Source of the DNA: Escherichia coli
GTDB lineage: Bacteria > Pseudomonadota > Gammaproteobacteria > Enterobacterales > Enterobacteriaceae
DNA: 64,000 bases
Assembly: GCF_003018115.1 (NCBI RefSeq)
Contig: NZ_CP027457.1
Reading direction: 5' to 3' (one strand)
Positions 27,526-35,620 of this stretch are shown piece by piece. The position numbers were made by a program, and so were the translations under genes. Numbering within the stretch: the stretch's first letter is position 1; each line of letters begins with the position of its first letter. Under the pieces are notes generated by a model. The model saw nothing but the letters and a program-made list of their open reading frames with translations. It was not told where the DNA came from and did not search any database.

Positions 27526-27906
27526 GGACGGAAGCTGTAAAAGTAAAATAATCTGCGATCTCAGATTTATTGAGTGATTTTTATGTGAGCAGAAGATATT
27601 CATCAGAAACGATTATGTAAATCATTTTATTTTGCCGACTGCCTGATTGTCGAAAGAAAAGAATACGCCCGTGTTTCCTGAATAGATTGACTTTTTTATC
27701 CAACCACACTTCAGCGCACTGCGTTTAAAAAATGCCTCATTCTTATGCGGAATATCATCATTTCATCATGATGTCTTTGATGAGCGGTGAACACAATACA
27801 CTTGCGCTGTCTCTTCAGGATGAATCCCCTGGTCTGGTGCCTGTGGGCTGATGTTGCAGCAAAGCTAAGGTCGCTTAAACGCTACTCAGTATTCACTTTT
27901 CAGAGG

Positions 27907-30900
27907 ATGAAATTTATGAACAGGACCAGTCCCCATTATTGTCGCCGCTCAGTACTTTCCTTATTGATATCTGCCCTGATATATGCCCCGCCCGGGATGG
28001 CGGCCTTTACTACTAATGTTATTGGTGTGGTAAACGATGAGACTGTAGATGGTGTCCAAAAAGTAGATGAACGAGGTACAACAAATAACACTCATATTAT
28101 CAACCATGGCCAGCAGAATGTTGAAGGCGGGGTATCCAATGGAAGTATTATTGAATCGGGTGGATATCAAGATGTAGGAAGGCATAATAATTTTGTGGGG
28201 CAGGCTAATAATACAACCATTAACGGGGGCAGACAGTCAATTCATGACGGGGGTATTTCCACAGGTACGACAATCGAGAGTGGCAATCAGGACGTTTATA
28301 CAGGTGGTATCAGCAATGGAACGACAATTAAGGGTGGTAATTCACACATAAGTGGGGGGACTGCGAATGGAACAATCATTGATGGTGGCAGCCAACGAGT
28401 AACAACTCAGGGGCATGTCGACAGTACAACGATAAATAAGTCTGGCTCTCAGGACATCACGCAAGGAAGTCTGGCAACGAACACAACCATAAATGGTGGT
28501 CGACAGTATGTTGAACAGAGCACAGTAGAAACAACAACCATTAAAAATGGCGGTGAGCAAAGAGTATATGAGAGCCGTGCGCTGGACACGACGATTGAAG
28601 GCGGAACTCAGTCTCTGAATAGTAAGTCAACGGCAAAAAATACGCAGATCTATTCTGGTGGCACGCAAATTGTTGATAACACCAGCACCTCGGATGTTAT
28701 TGAAGTTTATTCCGGTGGCGTGCTTGATGTTAGTGGTGGTACGGCAACAAATGTTACCCAGCACGATGGTGCAATTTTAAAAACAAACACTAACGGTACG
28801 ACGGTGAACGGTACGAATAGTGAAGGTGCATTCTCCATCCACAATCACGTGGCAGACAATGTGTTGCTGGAAAACGGTGGTCATTTAGACATAAACGCAT
28901 ATGGTTCGGCAAACAAGACGATTATCAAAGATAAAGGAACAATGTCAGTTTTAACCAATGCTAAAGCTGATGCGACCCGAATAGATAATGGCGGGGTTAT
29001 GGATGTTGCCGGAAACGCGACAAATACCATAATTAATGGTGGCACACAGAATATTAATAATTATGGCATAGCCACAGGCACTAATATCAACAGCGGAACG
29101 CAAAATATCAAAAGCGGCGGGAAAGCTGACACAACAATTATATCCTCCGGGAGCCGGCAGGTTGTTGAGAAAGATGGTACGGCAATTGGCAGCAATATTA
29201 GCGCCGGAGGCTCACTGATTGTCTATACCGGCGGTATTGCACATGGGGTTAACCAGGAGACGGGCAGTGCTTTAGTTGCCAACACGGGTGCAGGGACTGA
29301 TATCGAAGGATACAACAAGCTCTCTCACTTCACTATTACCGGAGGGGAGGCTAATTATGTTGTGCTGGAAAATACCGGCGAACTGACGGTAGTGGCTAAA
29401 ACCTCGGCGAAAAATACTACCATTGATGCTGGCGGTAAGCTGATTGTCCAGAAGGAGGCTAAAACAGATAGCACCAGACTTAATAATGGCGGCGTTCTGG
29501 AGGTTCAGGACGGTGGTGAGGCTAAGCATGTTGAGCAACAATCCGGCGGCGCATTAATTGCTTCCACGACCTCCGGAACACTTATCGAAGGAACCAACAG
29601 TTATGGTGATGCTTTCTACATCAGGAATTCAGAAGCTAAAAATGTAGTGCTGGAAAACGCTGGCTCATTAACAGTCGTCACTGGTTCCCGGGCAGTTGAC
29701 ACGATTATTAATGCCAACGGCAAAATGGATGTTTATGGAAAAGATGTTGGCACTGTACTCAATAGTGCTGGCACCCAAACAATATATGCCAGTGCCACTT
29801 CTGATAAAGCAAATATCAAAGGTGGCAAGCAAACGGTATATGGTTTAGCCACTGAAGCAAATATCGAAAGTGGTGAACAAATTGTTGATGGCGGGTCAAC
29901 AGAGAAAACACACATCAATGGTGGCACGCAAACCGTTCAGAATTATGGTAAGGCAATCAATACCGATATCGTCTCTGGCCTACAACAAATTATGGCAAAC
30001 GGGACAGCGGAAGGTTCCATTATTAATGGGGGTTCACAGGTAGTTAATGAGGGCGGTCTGGCTGAAAACTCGGTGCTTAATGACGGCGGCACACTCGATG
30101 TGCGGGAGAAAGGCAGCGCAACGGGGATACAGCAGAGTAGCCAGGGCGCTTTGGTTGCAACCACCAGGGCGACGCGGGTCACAGGAACACGCGCGGATGG
30201 CGTCGCGTTCAGCATCGAGCAGGGTGCGGCGAACAATATCCTGCTGGCAAATGGCGGCGTGTTAACCGTGGAGTCAGACACCACTTCCGCCAAAACACAG
30301 GTCAATACGGGCGGACGGGAGATCGTCAAAACAAAAGCCACTGCGACAGGCACGACGCTCACCGGCGGTGAACAAATTGTCGAGGGTGTGGCGAATGAGA
30401 CAACAATTAACGACGGCGGAATACAAACAGTTTCAGCTAACGGAGAGGCAATAAAAACAAAGATCAATGAAGGCGGAACGCTGACAGTCAACGATAATGG
30501 CAAAGCGACAGATATCGTCCAGAACAGCGGTGCCGCTCTCCAGACGAGCACGGCTGACGGTATTGAAATCAGCGGTACTCACCAGTACGGCACTTTTTCC
30601 ATTTCCGGCAATTTAGCGACCAATATGTTGCTGGAAAATGGCGGTAATTTATTGGTATTAGCAGGTACCGAAGCTCGCGACTCCACGGTTGGCAAGGGTG
30701 GGGCAATGCAAAACCTGGGTCAGGACTCCGCCACAAAGGTTAACTCTGGTGGGCAATATACCCTTGGGCGGTCAAAAGATGAGTTTCAGGCTCTGGCCCG
30801 GGCAGAAGATCTCCAGGTCGCTGGCGGGACGGCAATCGTCTACGCAGGTACGCTGGCGGATGCATCGGTCAGTGGCGCGACAGGAAGCCTGTCGTTAATG

Positions 30901-32502
30901 ACGCCACGGGATAATGTTACGCCAGTTAAACTCGAAGGGGCGGTCCGGATTACCGATAGCGCGACATTGACTCTGGGAAATGGCGTCGATACAACGCTTG
31001 CCGACCTGACGGCTGCCAGCCGGGGCAGTGTCTGGCTTAACAGCAATAATTCCTGTGCAGGCACCAGCAACTGCGAGTATAGAGTAAACAGTTTGCTACT
31101 TAACGACGGTAATGTTTATTTATCAGCACAAACAGCAGCGCCTGCCACAACTAACGGTATCTACAATACGCTGACAACCAATGAACTTTCCGGTAGCGGT
31201 AATTTCTACCTGCATACCAACGTTGCAGGCTCCCGGGGCGATCAACTGGTCGTCAACTACAACGCCACTGGTAATTTTAAAATCTTTGTTCAGGATACCG
31301 GCGTCAGCCCACAGTCTGACGACGCGATGACGCTGGTGAAAACAGGGGGAGGGGATGCTTCGTTTACGCTGGGCAATACCGGCGGTTTCGTTGATCTTGG
31401 GACCTATGAGTATGTCCTGAAAAGCGACGGCAACAGCAACTGGAACCTGACCAATGATGTCAAACCCAACCCGGACCCCAACCCAAATCCAAATCCGAAG
31501 CCAGACCCAAAACCCGATCCAACGCCAGACCCAAATCCAAAACCAGACCCGACTCCCGAGCCAACGCCGACACCCGTTCCGGAGAAACGCATCACGCCTT
31601 CTACCGCAGCCGTACTCAATATGGCAGCAACATTACCGTTGGTATTTGATGCTGAGCTAAACAGTATTCGCGAGCGGTTGAACATAATGAAAGCGAGTCC
31701 ACACAACAATAATGTCTGGGGGGCGACGTATAACACCCGTAATAATGTCACCACCGATGCGGGTGCCGGGTTTGAGCAGACGCTGACAGGAATGACAGTG
31801 GGGATCGACAGCCGTAATGATATTCCTGAAGGAATTGCCACGCTGGGCGCTTTTATTGGTTATTCCCATTCACATATCGGTTTTGATCGCGGAGGACATG
31901 GCAGTGTGGGCAGTTATTCTCTGGGCGGCTATGCCAGTTGGGAACATGAAAGTGGTTTCTATCTGGACGGTGTCGTGAAGCTGAACCGTTTTGAAAGTAA
32001 CGTAGCCGGTAAAATGAGCAGCGGTGGAGCCGCCAATGGCAGTTACCACAGCAACGGGCTGGGCGGTCACATTGAAACCGGGATGCGATTTACCGATGGT
32101 AACTGGAACCTGACGCCGTATGCATCGTTAACGGGGTTCACCGCTGATAACCCTGAATATCATTTATCCAATGGCATGGAATCGAAATCAGTCGATACCC
32201 GCAGTATATATCGTGAACTGGGTGCAACGCTGAGTTACAACATGCGTCTGGGGAACGGTATGGAAGTTGAGCCGTGGCTGAAGGCGGCTGTGCGCAAAGA
32301 ATTTGTCGATGATAACCGGGTGAAGGTGAATAATGACGGTAATTTCGTCAATGATTTGTCGGGCAGACGTGGAATATACCAGGCAGGTATTAAAGCCTCA
32401 TTCAGCAGTACGTTAAGCGGGCATCTCGGGGTGGGGTATAGCAACGGTGCCGATGTGGAATCCCCGTGGAACGCGGTGGCTGGTGTGAACTGGTCGTTCT
32501 GA
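27907..32502 (+). CDS. ypjA: AIDA/YpjA-type autotransporter adhesin
   Basis: Start MKFMNRTSPHYCRRSVLSLLISALIYAPPGMAA (signal peptide); glycine/threonine-rich repetitive passenger; proline-rich PNPDPNPNPNPKPDPKPDP linker; C-terminal beta-barrel ending ...AVAGVNWSF. Confidence 0.85.
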   Translation: MKFMNRTSPHYCRRSVLSLLISALIYAPPGMAAFTTNVIGVVNDETVDGVQKVDERGTTNNTHIINHGQQNVEGGVSNGSIIESGGYQDVGRHNNFVGQANNTTINGGRQSIHDGGISTGTTIESGNQDVYTGGISNGTTIKGGNSHISGGTANGTIIDGGSQRVTTQGHVDSTTINKSGSQDITQGSLATNTTINGGRQYVEQSTVETTTIKNGGEQRVYESRALDTTIEGGTQSLNSKSTAKNTQIYSGGTQIVDNTSTSDVIEVYSGGVLDVSGGTATNVTQHDGAILKTNTNGTTVNGTNSEGAFSIHNHVADNVLLENGGHLDINAYGSANKTIIKDKGTMSVLTNAKADATRIDNGGVMDVAGNATNTIINGGTQNINNYGIATGTNINSGTQNIKSGGKADTTIISSGSRQVVEKDGTAIGSNISAGGSLIVYTGGIAHGVNQETGSALVANTGAGTDIEGYNKLSHFTITGGEANYVVLENTGELTVVAKTSAKNTTIDAGGKLIVQKEAKTDSTRLNNGGVLEVQDGGEAKHVEQQSGGALIASTTSGTLIEGTNSYGDAFYIRNSEAKNVVLENAGSLTVVTGSRAVDTIINANGKMDVYGKDVGTVLNSAGTQTIYASATSDKANIKGGKQTVYGLATEANIESGEQIVDGGSTEKTHINGGTQTVQNYGKAINTDIVSGLQQIMANGTAEGSIINGGSQVVNEGGLAENSVLNDGGTLDVREKGSATGIQQSSQGALVATTRATRVTGTRADGVAFSIEQGAANNILLANGGVLTVESDTTSAKTQVNTGGREIVKTKATATGTTLTGGEQIVEGVANETTINDGGIQTVSANGEAIKTKINEGGTLTVNDNGKATDIVQNSGAALQTSTADGIEISGTHQYGTFSISGNLATNMLLENGGNLLVLAGTEARDSTVGKGGAMQNLGQDSATKVNSGGQYTLGRSKDEFQALARAEDLQVAGGTAIVYAGTLADASVSGATGSLSLMTPRDNVTPVKLEGAVRITDSATLTLGNGVDTTLADLTAASRGSVWLNSNNSCAGTSNCEYRVNSLLLNDGNVYLSAQTAAPATTNGIYNTLTTNELSGSGNFYLHTNVAGSRGDQLVVNYNATGNFKIFVQDTGVSPQSDDAMTLVKTGGGDASFTLGNTGGFVDLGTYEYVLKSDGNSNWNLTNDVKPNPDPNPNPNPKPDPKPDPTPDPNPKPDPTPEPTPTPVPEKRITPSTAAVLNMAATLPLVFDAELNSIRERLNIMKASPHNNNVWGATYNTRNNVTTDAGAGFEQTLTGMTVGIDSRNDIPEGIATLGAFIGYSHSHIGFDRGGHGSVGSYSLGGYASWEHESGFYLDGVVKLNRFESNVAGKMSSGGAANGSYHSNGLGGHIETGMRFTDGNWNLTPYASLTGFTADNPEYHLSNGMESKSVDTRSIYRELGATLSYNMRLGNGMEVEPWLKAAVRKEFVDDNRVKVNNDGNFVNDLSGRRGIYQAGIKASFSSTLSGHLGVGYSNGADVESPWNAVAGVNWSF

Positions 32503-32512
32503 CCATCAACGA

Positions 32513-32536
32513 AAAAGCCCACATCTGTGGGCTTTC
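32513..32536 (+). terminator. Rho-independent terminator downstream of ypjA
   Basis: Hairpin agcccacatctgtgggct followed by a T-run, immediately after the ypjA stop. Confidence 0.6.
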
Positions 32537-32663
32537 ATGTCGCCAGGAGCCGCGGCTCCTTTGCGTATCCTTTTTTGTCTCCTCACCGTCTGGTCGGTGT
32601 CCTGCTGAGACTGCTAACTTCCTGTTTTTGTTGGTGTTGTCCTTACACCGTCCAATCATGATT

Positions 32664-32708
32664 GGTGGAGCTGGCGGGAGTTGAACCCGCGTCCGAAATT
32701 CCTACATA
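32664..32708 (-). repeat. tmRNA (ssrA) 3'-end-like sequence: prophage att core copy
   Basis: Minus strand reads gtaggaatttcggacgcgggttcaactcccgccagctccacca, i.e. the acceptor/T-arm end of tmRNA with CCA; no upstream tmRNA body, so this is a partial duplicate. Confidence 0.7.
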
Positions 32709-32792
32709 CCATTTTCACTATAATAAAAACATTAACTTGCGTTTAAAATCAGTAAGTTAGTATTATCTTGTGTTTGCTCGTTTTACTCATTT

Positions 32793-33839
32793 TTAATGCT
32801 CTGTCGCCAATCTGTCGCCATTGTAGGTCAACGAAGGTTGAGCCTTCCCTTTGTTTGTTATAATTTCATCAAAGATAGCTGGATTATTATCTTTCAGTAA
32901 TCTTGCTAGTATAATGATTTGCCCAGACGAGCCATCATCCTTGAATGAAAGGAAATTATCGGTAATATCAAGAATATCAATGGTAAATTTGAAGTAAGTT
33001 TCAATTGTATCGCCAAGCTCAATGCTGGACATGAAGTTAGTAACCATTTCATATCCATCAAAGTATAAAGTTGCATGTTCATTTAACTCCATTGGAGTTA
33101 GGCAAAGCATTCGATTAAGTTCGGATAAGTGTTTTTCTATTGAATGAAGAGATTGCATTTGACGGATTAAAACTTCGTCAAACTGAGAGCCATGATTAGA
33201 TGAATGTATCTTCTCTAGGTTTTTTAGTATATCAACCCAGTGATTATTCACTTCACGTATGTATTCTTTATCTGTATTTTTAGGCCGTCCCTTCTCTGGT
33301 GAGCTATTTATGAAAATATATCTATATAGATGTATTGGGTAGTTAATTTTATAACTTATCTCTTTAGTACCATAATGACGTTCGCGTTTAATGGTTTTGT
33401 TAGGTAAATTGGTGAAATAATCAGTAACGAACTTTAGATGGCTATAGTAGCTATCAGATAGATTCTTTTGCTTGGTTTCCTCAATTTGTCGGTTTGTTTG
33501 AACTGTGCGGTGTATGTTTGCTACGACAGCAACAAATGGTATGGACAAAGAAAGTAAGGCGATAGGAAGCTTGCTAATTGCAATGAAATTATTAAAGCCC
33601 TCACTATCAAATTGAGGGGAATGTCCAAGCCAGGAAAATATACCAAAGTATATCGCTGAAAATACAGGAATCCTAAGTGATTGTTTAAATAAGTATTGAC
33701 TTGTTAATGGCCTTTCATCCATGTTAAAGCCTTTTTTTGATACGCATAGATATAATTCAAGGCATATATATAAAAAATATATTATGATAAGTAAGTACGA
33801 TATCCATGGGTATTGTTGGATATAGTTATTAACAAACAC
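32793..33839 (-). CDS. Prophage cargo: uncharacterized membrane-anchored protein (348 aa)
   Basis: Very AT-rich ORF between att core and integrase; N-terminal hydrophobic helices (YLLIIIYFLYICLELYL, IPVFSAIYFGIFSWLG, LPIALLSLSIPFVAVVANI) followed by a soluble domain; start overlaps the integrase stop. Confidence 0.6.
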   Translation of the reverse strand: MFVNNYIQQYPWISYLLIIIYFLYICLELYLCVSKKGFNMDERPLTSQYLFKQSLRIPVFSAIYFGIFSWLGHSPQFDSEGFNNFIAISKLPIALLSLSIPFVAVVANIHRTVQTNRQIEETKQKNLSDSYYSHLKFVTDYFTNLPNKTIKRERHYGTKEISYKINYPIHLYRYIFINSSPEKGRPKNTDKEYIREVNNHWVDILKNLEKIHSSNHGSQFDEVLIRQMQSLHSIEKHLSELNRMLCLTPMELNEHATLYFDGYEMVTNFMSSIELGDTIETYFKFTIDILDITDNFLSFKDDGSSGQIIILARLLKDNNPAIFDEIITNKGKAQPSLTYNGDRLATEH

Positions 33840-34868
33840 TTTCTAATTTTCTCCATCCAAGGTTAGCAAGAGGATTTTTGGTTACAGCATCTTCCAGATG
33901 GTCGGGAGCGAAGTGGGCGTAAATCATTGTCATTTTTATATCGACATGGCCCAGAATATCGCGCAGCACCAGTATGTTTCCGCCATTCATCATAAAGTGA
34001 CTTGCAAATGTATGTCGTAATACGTGTGTGCATTGCCCTTCTGGTAGCTCGATGCCAGCTCGTTTTACCGCACGTTCAAAAGCTTTCCTACAAGGTGTAA
34101 ATAATTTTCCCCTATTCTTAGGCAGTTCTTCATATAAATCCTTTGAAATAGGCACTGTTCGGTTTTTCTTTCCTTTAGTCTTGGTATAAGTGATACGGTA
34201 TTTTGACACCTGATGACTCTGCAGGTTTTCGGCTTCGCTCCAGCGTGCGCCGGTGGCCAAGCATATTTTTGCAATCATCAGCAGACTGGGGCTTTGAGAA
34301 TCAGCACAGGCATCCAGCAGACGTTTAATTTCTTCCGGGGTCAGGAACGCCAATTCACCCTCAGCAATTTTAAATGTTGGCAGCCCAGCAAGCGGGTTGG
34401 GGGCTGCCAGTGGCCCAGCTTTTTCAGTGTACCAAAAACAGATGATAGGTTGCGCTGTTCAAGATTTACCGTGCGGGGCTTAACGGGCGACATAAGCGTG
34501 CCATCTTCATTTCGTACTTCACCTTTTAACCGTGCTTCGCGGTATTTCGTAAACTCACCAGCTGTCAGTTCTGAGGCGATGGGATCGCCTAGACCATTAC
34601 AGATAATTCTAAGTTTCGCCATGAGGCGCTTGGGGTCTGCGAGTGTTTGACCATACAGGGAATACCACAGCTCAATTAATTCTGATAGATGTCGCCGATC
34701 TTCCTTTTCCCCTAGCCATGGTTTTTTGTTCACTTCTTCCATTGTGAAGCTTTCAAACGCAATGGCTTCGCCTTTGGTAGCAAATTGCTTACGCACGCGC
34801 TTACCATTGCGTCCATTGGGATAGCACTCACACAACCATTTTCCGTTCGGCTGTTTTCTGATGGTCAT
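33829..34868 (-). pseudogene. int: P2/186-family tyrosine integrase, split by an apparent frameshift in a C-run (as assembled)
   Basis: N-terminal half (ORF 34341..34868, MTIRKQPNGKWLCECYPNGRNGKRVRKQF...) and C-terminal catalytic half (ORF 33829..34353, ...GARWSEA...HVLRHTFASHFMMNGG...LGHVDIKMTMIYAHF) are in different frames; frames meet at the G/C homopolymer near 34399-34403. Confidence 0.8.
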
Positions 34869-34871
34869 AAG

Positions 34872-35510
34872 TTAGAGGTTCTTGATTACTTTGACTGCAC
34901 GTCCTAGGACTTCCACATCATCTACAGAACATTCAAATGAAGTGTCATCTTGGTTAACTACTATTTTGTTTCCGGGTATGCGCGCAATTTTGACGATGCT
35001 TTTAACTCCGTCCATATCGACTAACCAGAAGCCATTACTGACTTGTTTAACAGACGTATCCACTACAAAGCTATCATTAGCTGTTTTAACAAATAAAGCG
35101 TTGGATGAGTCACCATCGAGCAGGCTGCTATCAAGAAGAATTTCATCACTTGGCTGCAGTTCGCCGTTCTTCAGTTCAACACGTTTGATGCTAGGAGCGA
35201 CGATCTTAGAAAGTGGTCTTACAGTGACAGGAGGTTCATTTTTGAGATTTGTTTCTTCGTTCTCACACGCATACATATCTCCTTGACCAGTAGCCAGCCA
35301 TAGAAGGGAAACTCCTGTTTCAAGGGCACATTGGATTACCCATTCGGCAGGAAAGCTATCCCTTAAGTATCTGTTAGCCATAGTGCTTTTTGATACTTCC
35401 AGATGTTCGCAGAGCTGCTGTCGTGAGCTGAAGTTGTAAGCCTTAATAAGCCTATTAATCGCATCGCGCCCACCACTATCATTCCCCGCCTTGATTAAAC
35501 TCATAATCAA
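34872..35510 (-). CDS. cI: Phage 186-type CI immunity repressor
   Basis: 212-aa ORF with N-terminal HTH and C-terminal region matching remembered 186 CI blocks (CALETGxxLxWLxTGxG, WLVDxxGxxSI, FECxxDDxxxLGR). Confidence 0.75.
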   Translation of the reverse strand: MIMSLIKAGNDSGGRDAINRLIKAYNFSSRQQLCEHLEVSKSTMANRYLRDSFPAEWVIQCALETGVSLLWLATGQGDMYACENEETNLKNEPPVTVRPLSKIVAPSIKRVELKNGELQPSDEILLDSSLLDGDSSNALFVKTANDSFVVDTSVKQVSNGFWLVDMDGVKSIVKIARIPGNKIVVNQDDTSFECSVDDVEVLGRAVKVIKNL

Positions 35511-35620
35511 ACCTCTTGATGTATATAAAAAGTGATCCTAATATCCATCCATGGTTTGAAAAGCAAAACCAAACCACATAAAACAAGATAAAACGAAACC
35601 AAACTAAGAGATACTGCACT
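35511..35620. promoter_or_regulatory. Divergent lysis/lysogeny promoter-operator region (pR/pL-like)
   Basis: Short AT-rich space between divergent cI and apl; individual operators not resolved. Confidence 0.45.

Follow-up and report, generated by a model that had tools for sequence, protein, structure and literature searches.

In a 64,000-nucleotide (nt) stretch of Escherichia coli DNA (contig NZ_CP027457.1; hereafter the window), an AT-rich gene occupies the slot between the integrase gene (int) and the attachment (att) core of a prophage that, judged by its sequence, is a Fels-2/186-like member of Peduoviridae. Its product is a predicted membrane protein from a large family of Ec48-like membrane proteins that stand alone and carry no annotation; in this family a constant membrane module is followed by a C-terminal domain that is swapped among members. 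The family appears to be distantly related to the effector of retron Ec48, as a remote stand-alone relative and not as a member of a retron system. The type of locus and the idea of a membrane suicide effector were known already; the family is new. We give an even chance to the proposal that this cargo is a lysogen-expressed, single-protein abortive-infection defence, in which the constant module would serve as membrane effector and the variable domain as sensor.

An earlier reading of the window (the original prediction) had described a strongly AT-rich open reading frame (ORF) of 348 amino acids (aa) at 32793-33839 whose start overlaps the int stop codon and which lies just inside the att core, and each of these points held. 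The GTG start at 33839 lies 11 nt inside the int frame (int stop codon, 33829-33831). The guanine-plus-cytosine (GC) fraction of the gene is 0.337, and 0.31 at third codon positions (GC3), against 0.498 for the window. Sliding GC values dip to 0.33-0.36 exactly over the gene and are higher again in int and in the flanking chromosomal gene ypjA, and the reading frame is kept open despite the AT-rich sequence. On the far side, 32 nt identical to the 3′ end of ssrA, the transfer-messenger RNA (tmRNA) gene, lie on the minus strand at 32663-32694, 98 nt downstream of the cargo stop codon, where 0 matches are expected from shuffled sequences. The composition counts in favour of a cargo reading because it is typical of exchanged cargo.

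Slot content was compared among prophages that occupy the same ypjA-proximal site, together with cultured phages whose integrases are 92-94% identical to that of the window (92.7% for Fels-2, 91.7% for SopEPhi, and 94.4% for both RE-2010 and Cartapus). In E. coli Ecol_AZ147 the slot holds GapS1 (508 aa), in KE58 a 352-aa protein of the same family as the window protein (36% identical), and in strain 100416 an unrelated 222-aa hypothetical protein. Cartapus (gp33) and RE-2010 (gp01) carry a 401-aa protein annotated as RES-like, to which orfY in the slot of SopEPhi is 47% identical (401-403 aa for the RES-like occupants together). Only a 48-aa ORF is present in SEN8, and the slot of Fels-2 is empty, its int ending 144 nt before the end of the record. 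All occupants have 31-35% GC, GapS1 and the RES-like proteins share the orientation and the tight junction with int, and BLASTP found no matches between the window protein and the unrelated occupants (GapS1, RES-like and 222-aa proteins). Because slot content differs among phages with near-identical integrases, the gene is cargo outside the core gene set. This agrees with the original prediction, which saw no place for it in the canonical P2/186 gene set and proposed comparing its presence and absence in related prophages; there the slot proves variable, with other cargo or none.

Two earlier reports bear on what such a slot may carry. The integrase-att interval has been listed among the minor defence hotspots of P2, with 3% of the P2 systems located there (2026 preprint, bioRxiv 10.64898/2026.02.27.708500), and GapS1 is an experimentally validated single-protein defence, E. 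coli homologues included (bioRxiv 10.1101/2023.03.28.534373). GapS1 shares with the window gene its slot, orientation, AT-rich make-up and tight int junction. However, GapS1 is a soluble PD-(D/E)xK enzyme, whereas the window protein is predicted to be a membrane protein.

The exact protein is recorded solely as “hypothetical protein” in E. coli, Salmonella and Klebsiella, among which the ORF is intact and 98-99% identical. Of 5,426 complete E. coli genomes, 13 carry the window allele, which Klebsiella phage Kp4865-2 has as well. A full-length match to PHROG 17460, which has no assigned function, joins aa 4-332 to positions 2-343 of 343 (E value 2e-155). A profile search of 1.84 billion cluster representatives returned 822 clusters (50% identity) at E≤1e-3 and 128 at E≤1e-30, most of them 300-400 aa long and spread over Enterobacteriaceae, Vibrio, Pseudomonas and others. 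Pfam gave nothing meaningful for the window protein, 37 family members and a further relative (P0235), and NCBIfam gave no match for the window protein at E≤1. No structural relatives were found in PDB or BFVD, nor did sequence profiles find a solved relative, while Foldseek against the AlphaFold database returned 89 uncharacterised gammaproteobacterial proteins of similar length. The homology check suggested with the original prediction thus matched the family to no core phage function in either profile or structure searches. None of the defence-finder models covers the family, which is absent from PADLOC.

The family combines a strongly conserved module with a domain of extreme diversity. 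Within the enterobacterial clade, aa 40-146 stay 69-98% identical to the window protein, and identity drops to 17-32% over aa 147-348. When IMG/VR was scanned with the two peptides of highest conservation, 80 loci were obtained, in 72 of which cI, int and the family gene follow one another in this order on one strand; alignment A2 was used to scan viral contigs because the wide alignment (A3) was too diverged. Among 65 complete int-adjacent genes, the 106-aa modules all fall together in a single cluster at 40% identity (median pairwise identity, 48%). The C-terminal domains of the same genes, 188-226 aa long, fall into 13 clusters at 25% and 21 at 40% identity, with a pairwise median of 8%. 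At the DNA level, more distant E. coli alleles resemble the gene only over its nt 121-376, which correspond to the module, and this restriction points to mosaic exchange of the C-terminal domain.

The architecture is as originally predicted, with N-terminal transmembrane (TM) helices and a soluble C-terminal domain. The hydrophobic helices are placed at aa 12-34 (TM1, Kyte-Doolittle values up to 2.35), 49-71 (TM2) and 79-109 (TM3), with a short outer loop between the last two. An AlphaFold2 model (mean predicted local distance difference test score, pLDDT, 81; predicted template modelling score, pTM, 0.63) contains helices at 12-34, 49-71 and 79-143, the last of which runs from the membrane into a long stalk and then into an alpha/beta domain. 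The soluble region behind the helices comprises ~240 aa of mixed alpha/beta structure in this model, and pLDDT is mostly 80-94 in the hypervariable C-terminal domain of ~200 aa (aa 147-348). From hydropathy and the positions of Lys and Arg, both K/R-rich loops are assigned to the inside, so that the N-terminus would lie outside and the 36-56 loop and the C-terminal domain would be cytoplasmic. The juxtamembrane helix carries the signature N-I-H-R-T-x-Q-T-x-x-Q-I ... K-N-x-S-D-x-Y-Y-x-H. Across the wide family H110, Q114 and I119 are invariant and T115, Q118, K125, N126, D129 and H134 nearly so; the recurrence of conserved polar residues every 3-4 positions along helix 108-136 suggests one conserved face.

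Whether TM1 belongs to the protein depends on the start codon, since the 309-aa form annotated in RefSeq would be without it. In five diverged loci, whose proteins are merely 36-45% identical and whose GC content is 19-34%, the 39-53 codons lying upstream of the module have 0 in-frame stop codons, against 1-7 in the other frames. The probability that this leader remained open by chance is 0.016-0.076 per locus. The leader is hydrophobic throughout, and in alignment A2 its residues Y24 and E28 hardly vary. At every diverged locus examined, the cargo start meets the upstream stop codon in a 4-nt ATGA overlap, an 11-nt overlap or direct abutment. Given the open leader, the low chance odds, the hydrophobicity and the conservation of Y24 and E28, we favour the 348-aa form. 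The RefSeq start at M40, set by the Prokaryotic Genome Annotation Pipeline (PGAP), is probably 39 codons too late and removes a conserved TM helix; if the long form is right, it corrects a systematic error in RefSeq. M40 is invariant within the enterobacterial clade, and some distant family members begin naturally at this position and have only two TM helices. A dual-start, holin/antiholin-like reading of M40 was dropped, as the clades that have TM1 carry Leu there.

The connection to known effectors runs through a more distant branch, or subfamily, of the family. The wide alignment A3, which includes the window protein, and the alignment of this branch (A5) match each other over 236 columns with an hhalign probability of 99.9% (E 6e-33). 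Members of A5 in turn match, along the greater part of each, two independent curated models, PADLOC 2TM_IV (E 5e-11 to 3e-5) and NCBIfam NF038235, retron_Ec48_2TM (E 1.5e-8 to 2e-4, positions 10-178 of 219). A tblastn search of plasmids with P0194 found no retron Ec48 effector sequence. Type IV retron effectors have been described as comprising a signal peptide together with a pair of TM helices (PMC7736814), and the three hydrophobic segments of the window protein, which match this description, are counted in favour of the defence proposal. Like the window protein, the retron Ec48/Eco6 effector has an N-terminal hydrophobic segment, two TM helices and a cytoplasmic tail, but its model spans only 219 positions, whereas the window protein reaches 348 aa with its hypervariable C-terminal domain. 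The Ec48 effector no longer confers defence once its TM helices are deleted, and the Ec48 system was proposed to kill the cell upon sensing phage inhibitors of RecBCD (bioRxiv 10.1101/2020.06.21.156273). Membrane damage leading to abortive infection is the action proposed for both proteins.

Other parts of a retron were not found around the family members inspected. Neither a retron reverse transcriptase nor an msr/msd RNA was found beside the window gene, whose neighbours are int, cI, the att fragment and ypjA (an Rfam search of 32300-35800 gives solely the tmRNA fragment), and no reverse transcriptase was seen in nine other family contexts inspected. With neither reverse transcriptase nor multicopy single-stranded DNA (msDNA) at hand, the trigger would have to be sensed without msDNA. 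The window protein itself gives a weak match over aa 55-163 to the PADLOC model PDLC00691 (E 2e-4) for the two-transmembrane (2TM) effector of the cyclic-oligonucleotide-based anti-phage signalling system (CBASS), with no cyclase nearby. CBASS 2TM effectors, which have a cell-killing role, likewise place two TM helices before a cytoplasmic segment. Unlike them, the window gene stands alone, without a cyclase or a nucleotide-sensing domain such as SAVED.

The family also occurs in settings other than the int-att slot, and its carriers span two viral realms, namely tailed P2/186-like phages and tailless Vinavirales prophages. In the tailless prophages of Vibrio a member is the last gene and starts at the base after the stop codon of a LexA-like repressor; such prophages are reported to have a variable accessory locus in which defence genes are enriched (PMC11630473). 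Two P2-like viral contigs have members in the interval from the portal gene to gpA, in one case a tandem pair of paralogues, at a P2 hotspot shown experimentally to hold anti-phage systems (PMC9122126). One of these contigs (2850126897_000005 of IMG/VR, 83 kb) carries three members, one after int (L053) and the tandem pair in the portal-gpA interval (L091 2943-5083). In the second contig (L085 3983-5068), the portal-gpA member adjoins a protein of PHROG 14996, whose function is unknown. A Pseudomonas prophage has a member between lysis and tail genes, and in two other phages, at the end of the prophage, an integrase gene converges on the family gene. The family thus sits where validated anti-phage genes occur, despite having no functional annotation.

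In a PM2-like prophage of Vibrio agarivorans, a distant family member overlaps the end of a RES-domain gene by 11 nt (L019 7166-8939). RES-like proteins also fill, in Cartapus and RE-2010, the slot that the family fills in the window. The two kinds of cargo may be functionally linked or interchangeable.

We infer from the layout of the 186 switch, in which pL faces pR (PMC7498355), together with the tight gene junctions, that the protein would be expressed from the leftward lysogenic promoter pL as the last gene of the cI-int operon and be made in lysogens as an inner-membrane protein. Its N-terminal part (the optional TM1, two TM helices and the polar juxtamembrane helix) would constitute a membrane-damaging effector module, a distant relation of the 2TM effectors of retron Ec48/Eco6 and of CBASS. 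The cytoplasmic C-terminal domain of ~200 aa would keep this effector silent and recognise a component of an incoming phage. Recognition might then lead to oligomerisation or opening, and the membrane barrier would collapse before the invader could complete its cycle. The original prediction had left the choice among superinfection exclusion, abortive infection and lysogenic conversion; accessory cargo is the part that stands, and the range of putative functions narrows, tilting to abortive infection on account of the distant connection with the 2TM effector of retron Ec48.

The lambda protein RexB is a prophage membrane protein that is expressed from the immunity region in lysogens and is thought to depolarise the membrane on infection. 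The window protein resembles it as a prophage-encoded membrane candidate for abortive infection. However, RexB needs a separate sensor, RexA, and has four TM helices, and no search here found sequence similarity between the two proteins.

Several observations weigh against abortive-infection defence by an Ec48-like effector. The A5 scores against NF038235 (20.8-34.5 bits) are below the curated cut-off of 65 bits, and the window protein is detected neither by this model (NCBIfam, E≤1) nor by PADLOC 2TM_IV, so that the link to Ec48 is transitive and concerns mainly the membrane module. Moreover, similarity among TM-rich, AT-encoded proteins can be inflated by composition. In a scan of the cargo gene for a promoter or terminator of its own, nothing stood out above shuffled expectation, and because int is frameshifted here, any translational coupling of the cargo to int would be lost. 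One distant member lies in an ordinary chromosomal neighbourhood with no mobile-element genes near. A literature search for the RefSeq accession WP_000344474 found no mention of it. Finally, the evidence from location fits superinfection exclusion equally well.

Such exclusion, which was among the original suggestions, is the strongest of the alternatives, although we regard it as unlikely. Here the protein would block genome entry at the inner membrane without cell death, with the C-terminal domain selecting the injection machinery to be stopped. P22 SieA, T4 Imm and HK97 gp15 are inner-membrane entry blockers of this kind, and a membrane protein placed for lysogen expression in an accessory slot, from a family that adjoins repressor or integrase genes in several temperate viruses, would suit the role. 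Against this, the window protein has no similarity to any known superinfection-exclusion (Sie/Imm) protein in PADLOC, PHROGs, Pfam, NCBIfam, PDB or BFVD. The variable domain is predicted to be cytoplasmic and not periplasmic, which suits intracellular sensing better, and suicide effectors are the only proteins to which homology points.

Less likely again seems a membrane function in lysogenic conversion or in the prophage's own interest, as a stress or envelope modifier, an addiction-type toxin that keeps the prophage stable, or a modulator of prophage lysis or induction. The int-att slots of other temperate phages do carry conversion genes unrelated to defence, such as those for O-antigen modification in P22-like and Shigella phages, and the chromosomal member noted above would also fit. 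However, no similarity to glycosyltransferases, acyltransferases, holins or known toxins was found. The extreme diversity of the C-terminal domain on a constant module is hard to explain for a housekeeping envelope role, and members co-occupy hotspots that hold validated defences. The narrower idea of an O-antigen or envelope-modification moron was rejected, as there is no such homology and the large domain is predicted to be cytoplasmic.

AbiC was tested because “Phage abortive infection protein” is the name given to several neighbours in the AlphaFold database (Foldseek E values between 1e-17 and 1e-10), which raised the alternative that the protein is a divergent member of the lactococcal AbiC/AbiP group (PF16872, putAbiC) and, like AbiC, lowers the production of phage capsid protein. 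The AbiC layout, described in a review (PMC13064643), is indeed similar, since AbiC and AbiP are single-gene proteins of ~340 aa in which N-terminal TM helices are joined to an extra-membrane domain of ~230 aa, and weak colinear phmmer matches to a lactococcal AbiC-like protein (9-16 bits) extend over the last TM helix and the next helix. As a reference we used the AbiC-like gene of lactococcal plasmid p275A and an alignment of 17 relatives. Against this alignment, hhalign gave either branch of the family a probability of only 0.5-3.8%, and membership was rejected. The PADLOC AbiC model finds the p275A protein (E 4e-133) but not the window protein, no putAbiC match was obtained for the window protein or 37 members, and the invariant residues of the AbiC C-terminal domain (F196, H200, R201 and others) have no counterpart in the window protein. 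Relatives that bear the “Phage abortive infection protein” name in UniProt carry no detectable putAbiC domain (P0235). By these comparisons the resemblance is one of layout only, with no demonstrated homology, and AbiC membership is very unlikely.

There is scarcely any chance that the gene is a decaying, non-functional remnant in a grounded prophage, for although int is a pseudogene here and the closest E. coli genome has a truncated prophage, the ORF is intact and nearly identical in three genera, its frame is kept in AT-rich sequence, its family counts 822 clusters, and the module and its signature residues are conserved.

Tentatively, and with less than even confidence, we suggest that the gene is the founding example of a widespread branch of Ec48-type 2TM proteins independent of retrons, carried in lysogeny operons in two viral realms, whose single protein would sense phages directly by means of a rapidly swapping cytoplasmic domain. 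In that case it would represent a new single-gene defence family, and it would show either a retron effector working without msDNA or the capture of a pre-existing stand-alone effector by retrons. If the protein is protective, a compact one-gene system is added to the defence catalogue, and the natural library of C-terminal domains on a constant effector would allow specificity to be mapped by domain swaps. It would also help to show how membrane effectors of the Ec48 type become active.

Table 1. Features of the window discussed in the text, with positions in window coordinates.
Feature	Position	Strand	Basis or remarks
tRNA-Met gene	24804-24879	plus	Chromosomal flank
ypjA/ehaD autotransporter adhesin gene	27787-32502	plus	1571-aa ORF; chromosomal flank
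att region, ssrA (tmRNA) 3′ fragment	32663..32752	minus	Rfam, E 7.6e-10
Cargo gene, long form	32793..33839	minus	348 aa, GTG start; ORF list
Cargo gene, alternative short form	32793..33722	minus	309 aa from internal ATG (M40); RefSeq annotation of homologues (CFSAN051542)
Hypervariable C-terminal domain (aa 147-348)	32796..33401	minus	Predicted cytoplasmic, mixed alpha/beta
Conserved membrane module (aa 40-146)	33402..33722	minus	TM2, outer loop, TM3, juxtamembrane helix
TM1, accessory N-terminal helix (aa 12-34)	33738..33806	minus	Contains Y24 and E28
Fels-2/186-type tyrosine integrase (int), frameshifted pseudogene	33829..34868	minus	Two ORFs and alignment
186-type CI repressor (cI)	34872..35510	minus	ORF list; RefSeq and Pfam Phage_CI_repr in homologous loci
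Dam-like orphan DNA adenine methylase	37383-38300	plus	PADLOC oMTase, E 1e-110; early operon
gpA	38297-40711
Small ORF in portal-gpA hotspot	41489-41824	minus
593-aa protein in portal-gpA hotspot	42357-44138	plus	PADLOC NsnA, E 8e-31; PD-T4-2_A, E 2e-18
Portal gene	44179-45207

The remaining features of the prophage place the cargo gene in its host phage (Table 1). The neighbourhood includes cI, the first gene of the leftward lysogenic string cI-int-cargo, as well as Apl, CII, Fil, the Dam-like methylase and gpA. An orphan methylase of this kind is usual in the Fels-2/186-like phage group. The 593-aa protein in the portal-gpA hotspot also matches a type II restriction enzyme model; given this match and those to NsnA and PD-T4-2_A, the prophage carries a second candidate defence gene.

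At the left edge, similarity with sister prophages that sit at other sites sets in at query position 363/364 (window 32662/32663), and because this homology breaks at the outer edge of the ssrA core, we place the left prophage boundary at 32663. ARAGORN found no complete tmRNA gene in the window, which also holds no second copy of the att core, so the prophage extends beyond the right end of the window. Since the ssrA fragment adjoins ypjA, the prophage should occupy the ssrA-ypjA interval, which in K-12 holds CP4-57.

The integrase gene is split into two ORFs (34341-34868 and 33829-34353), and a single T is missing between 34407 and 34406 relative to the intact 346-aa gene of E. coli CFSAN051542. 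The frameshift may mean that prophage excision has been lost, or it may be a sequencing error. Among complete E. coli genomes CFSAN051542 is the closest; its sister prophage is cut short, with the methylase next to a partial baseplate gene that follows it directly (L001 9080-9301), and both int and the cargo gene are intact there despite this truncation.

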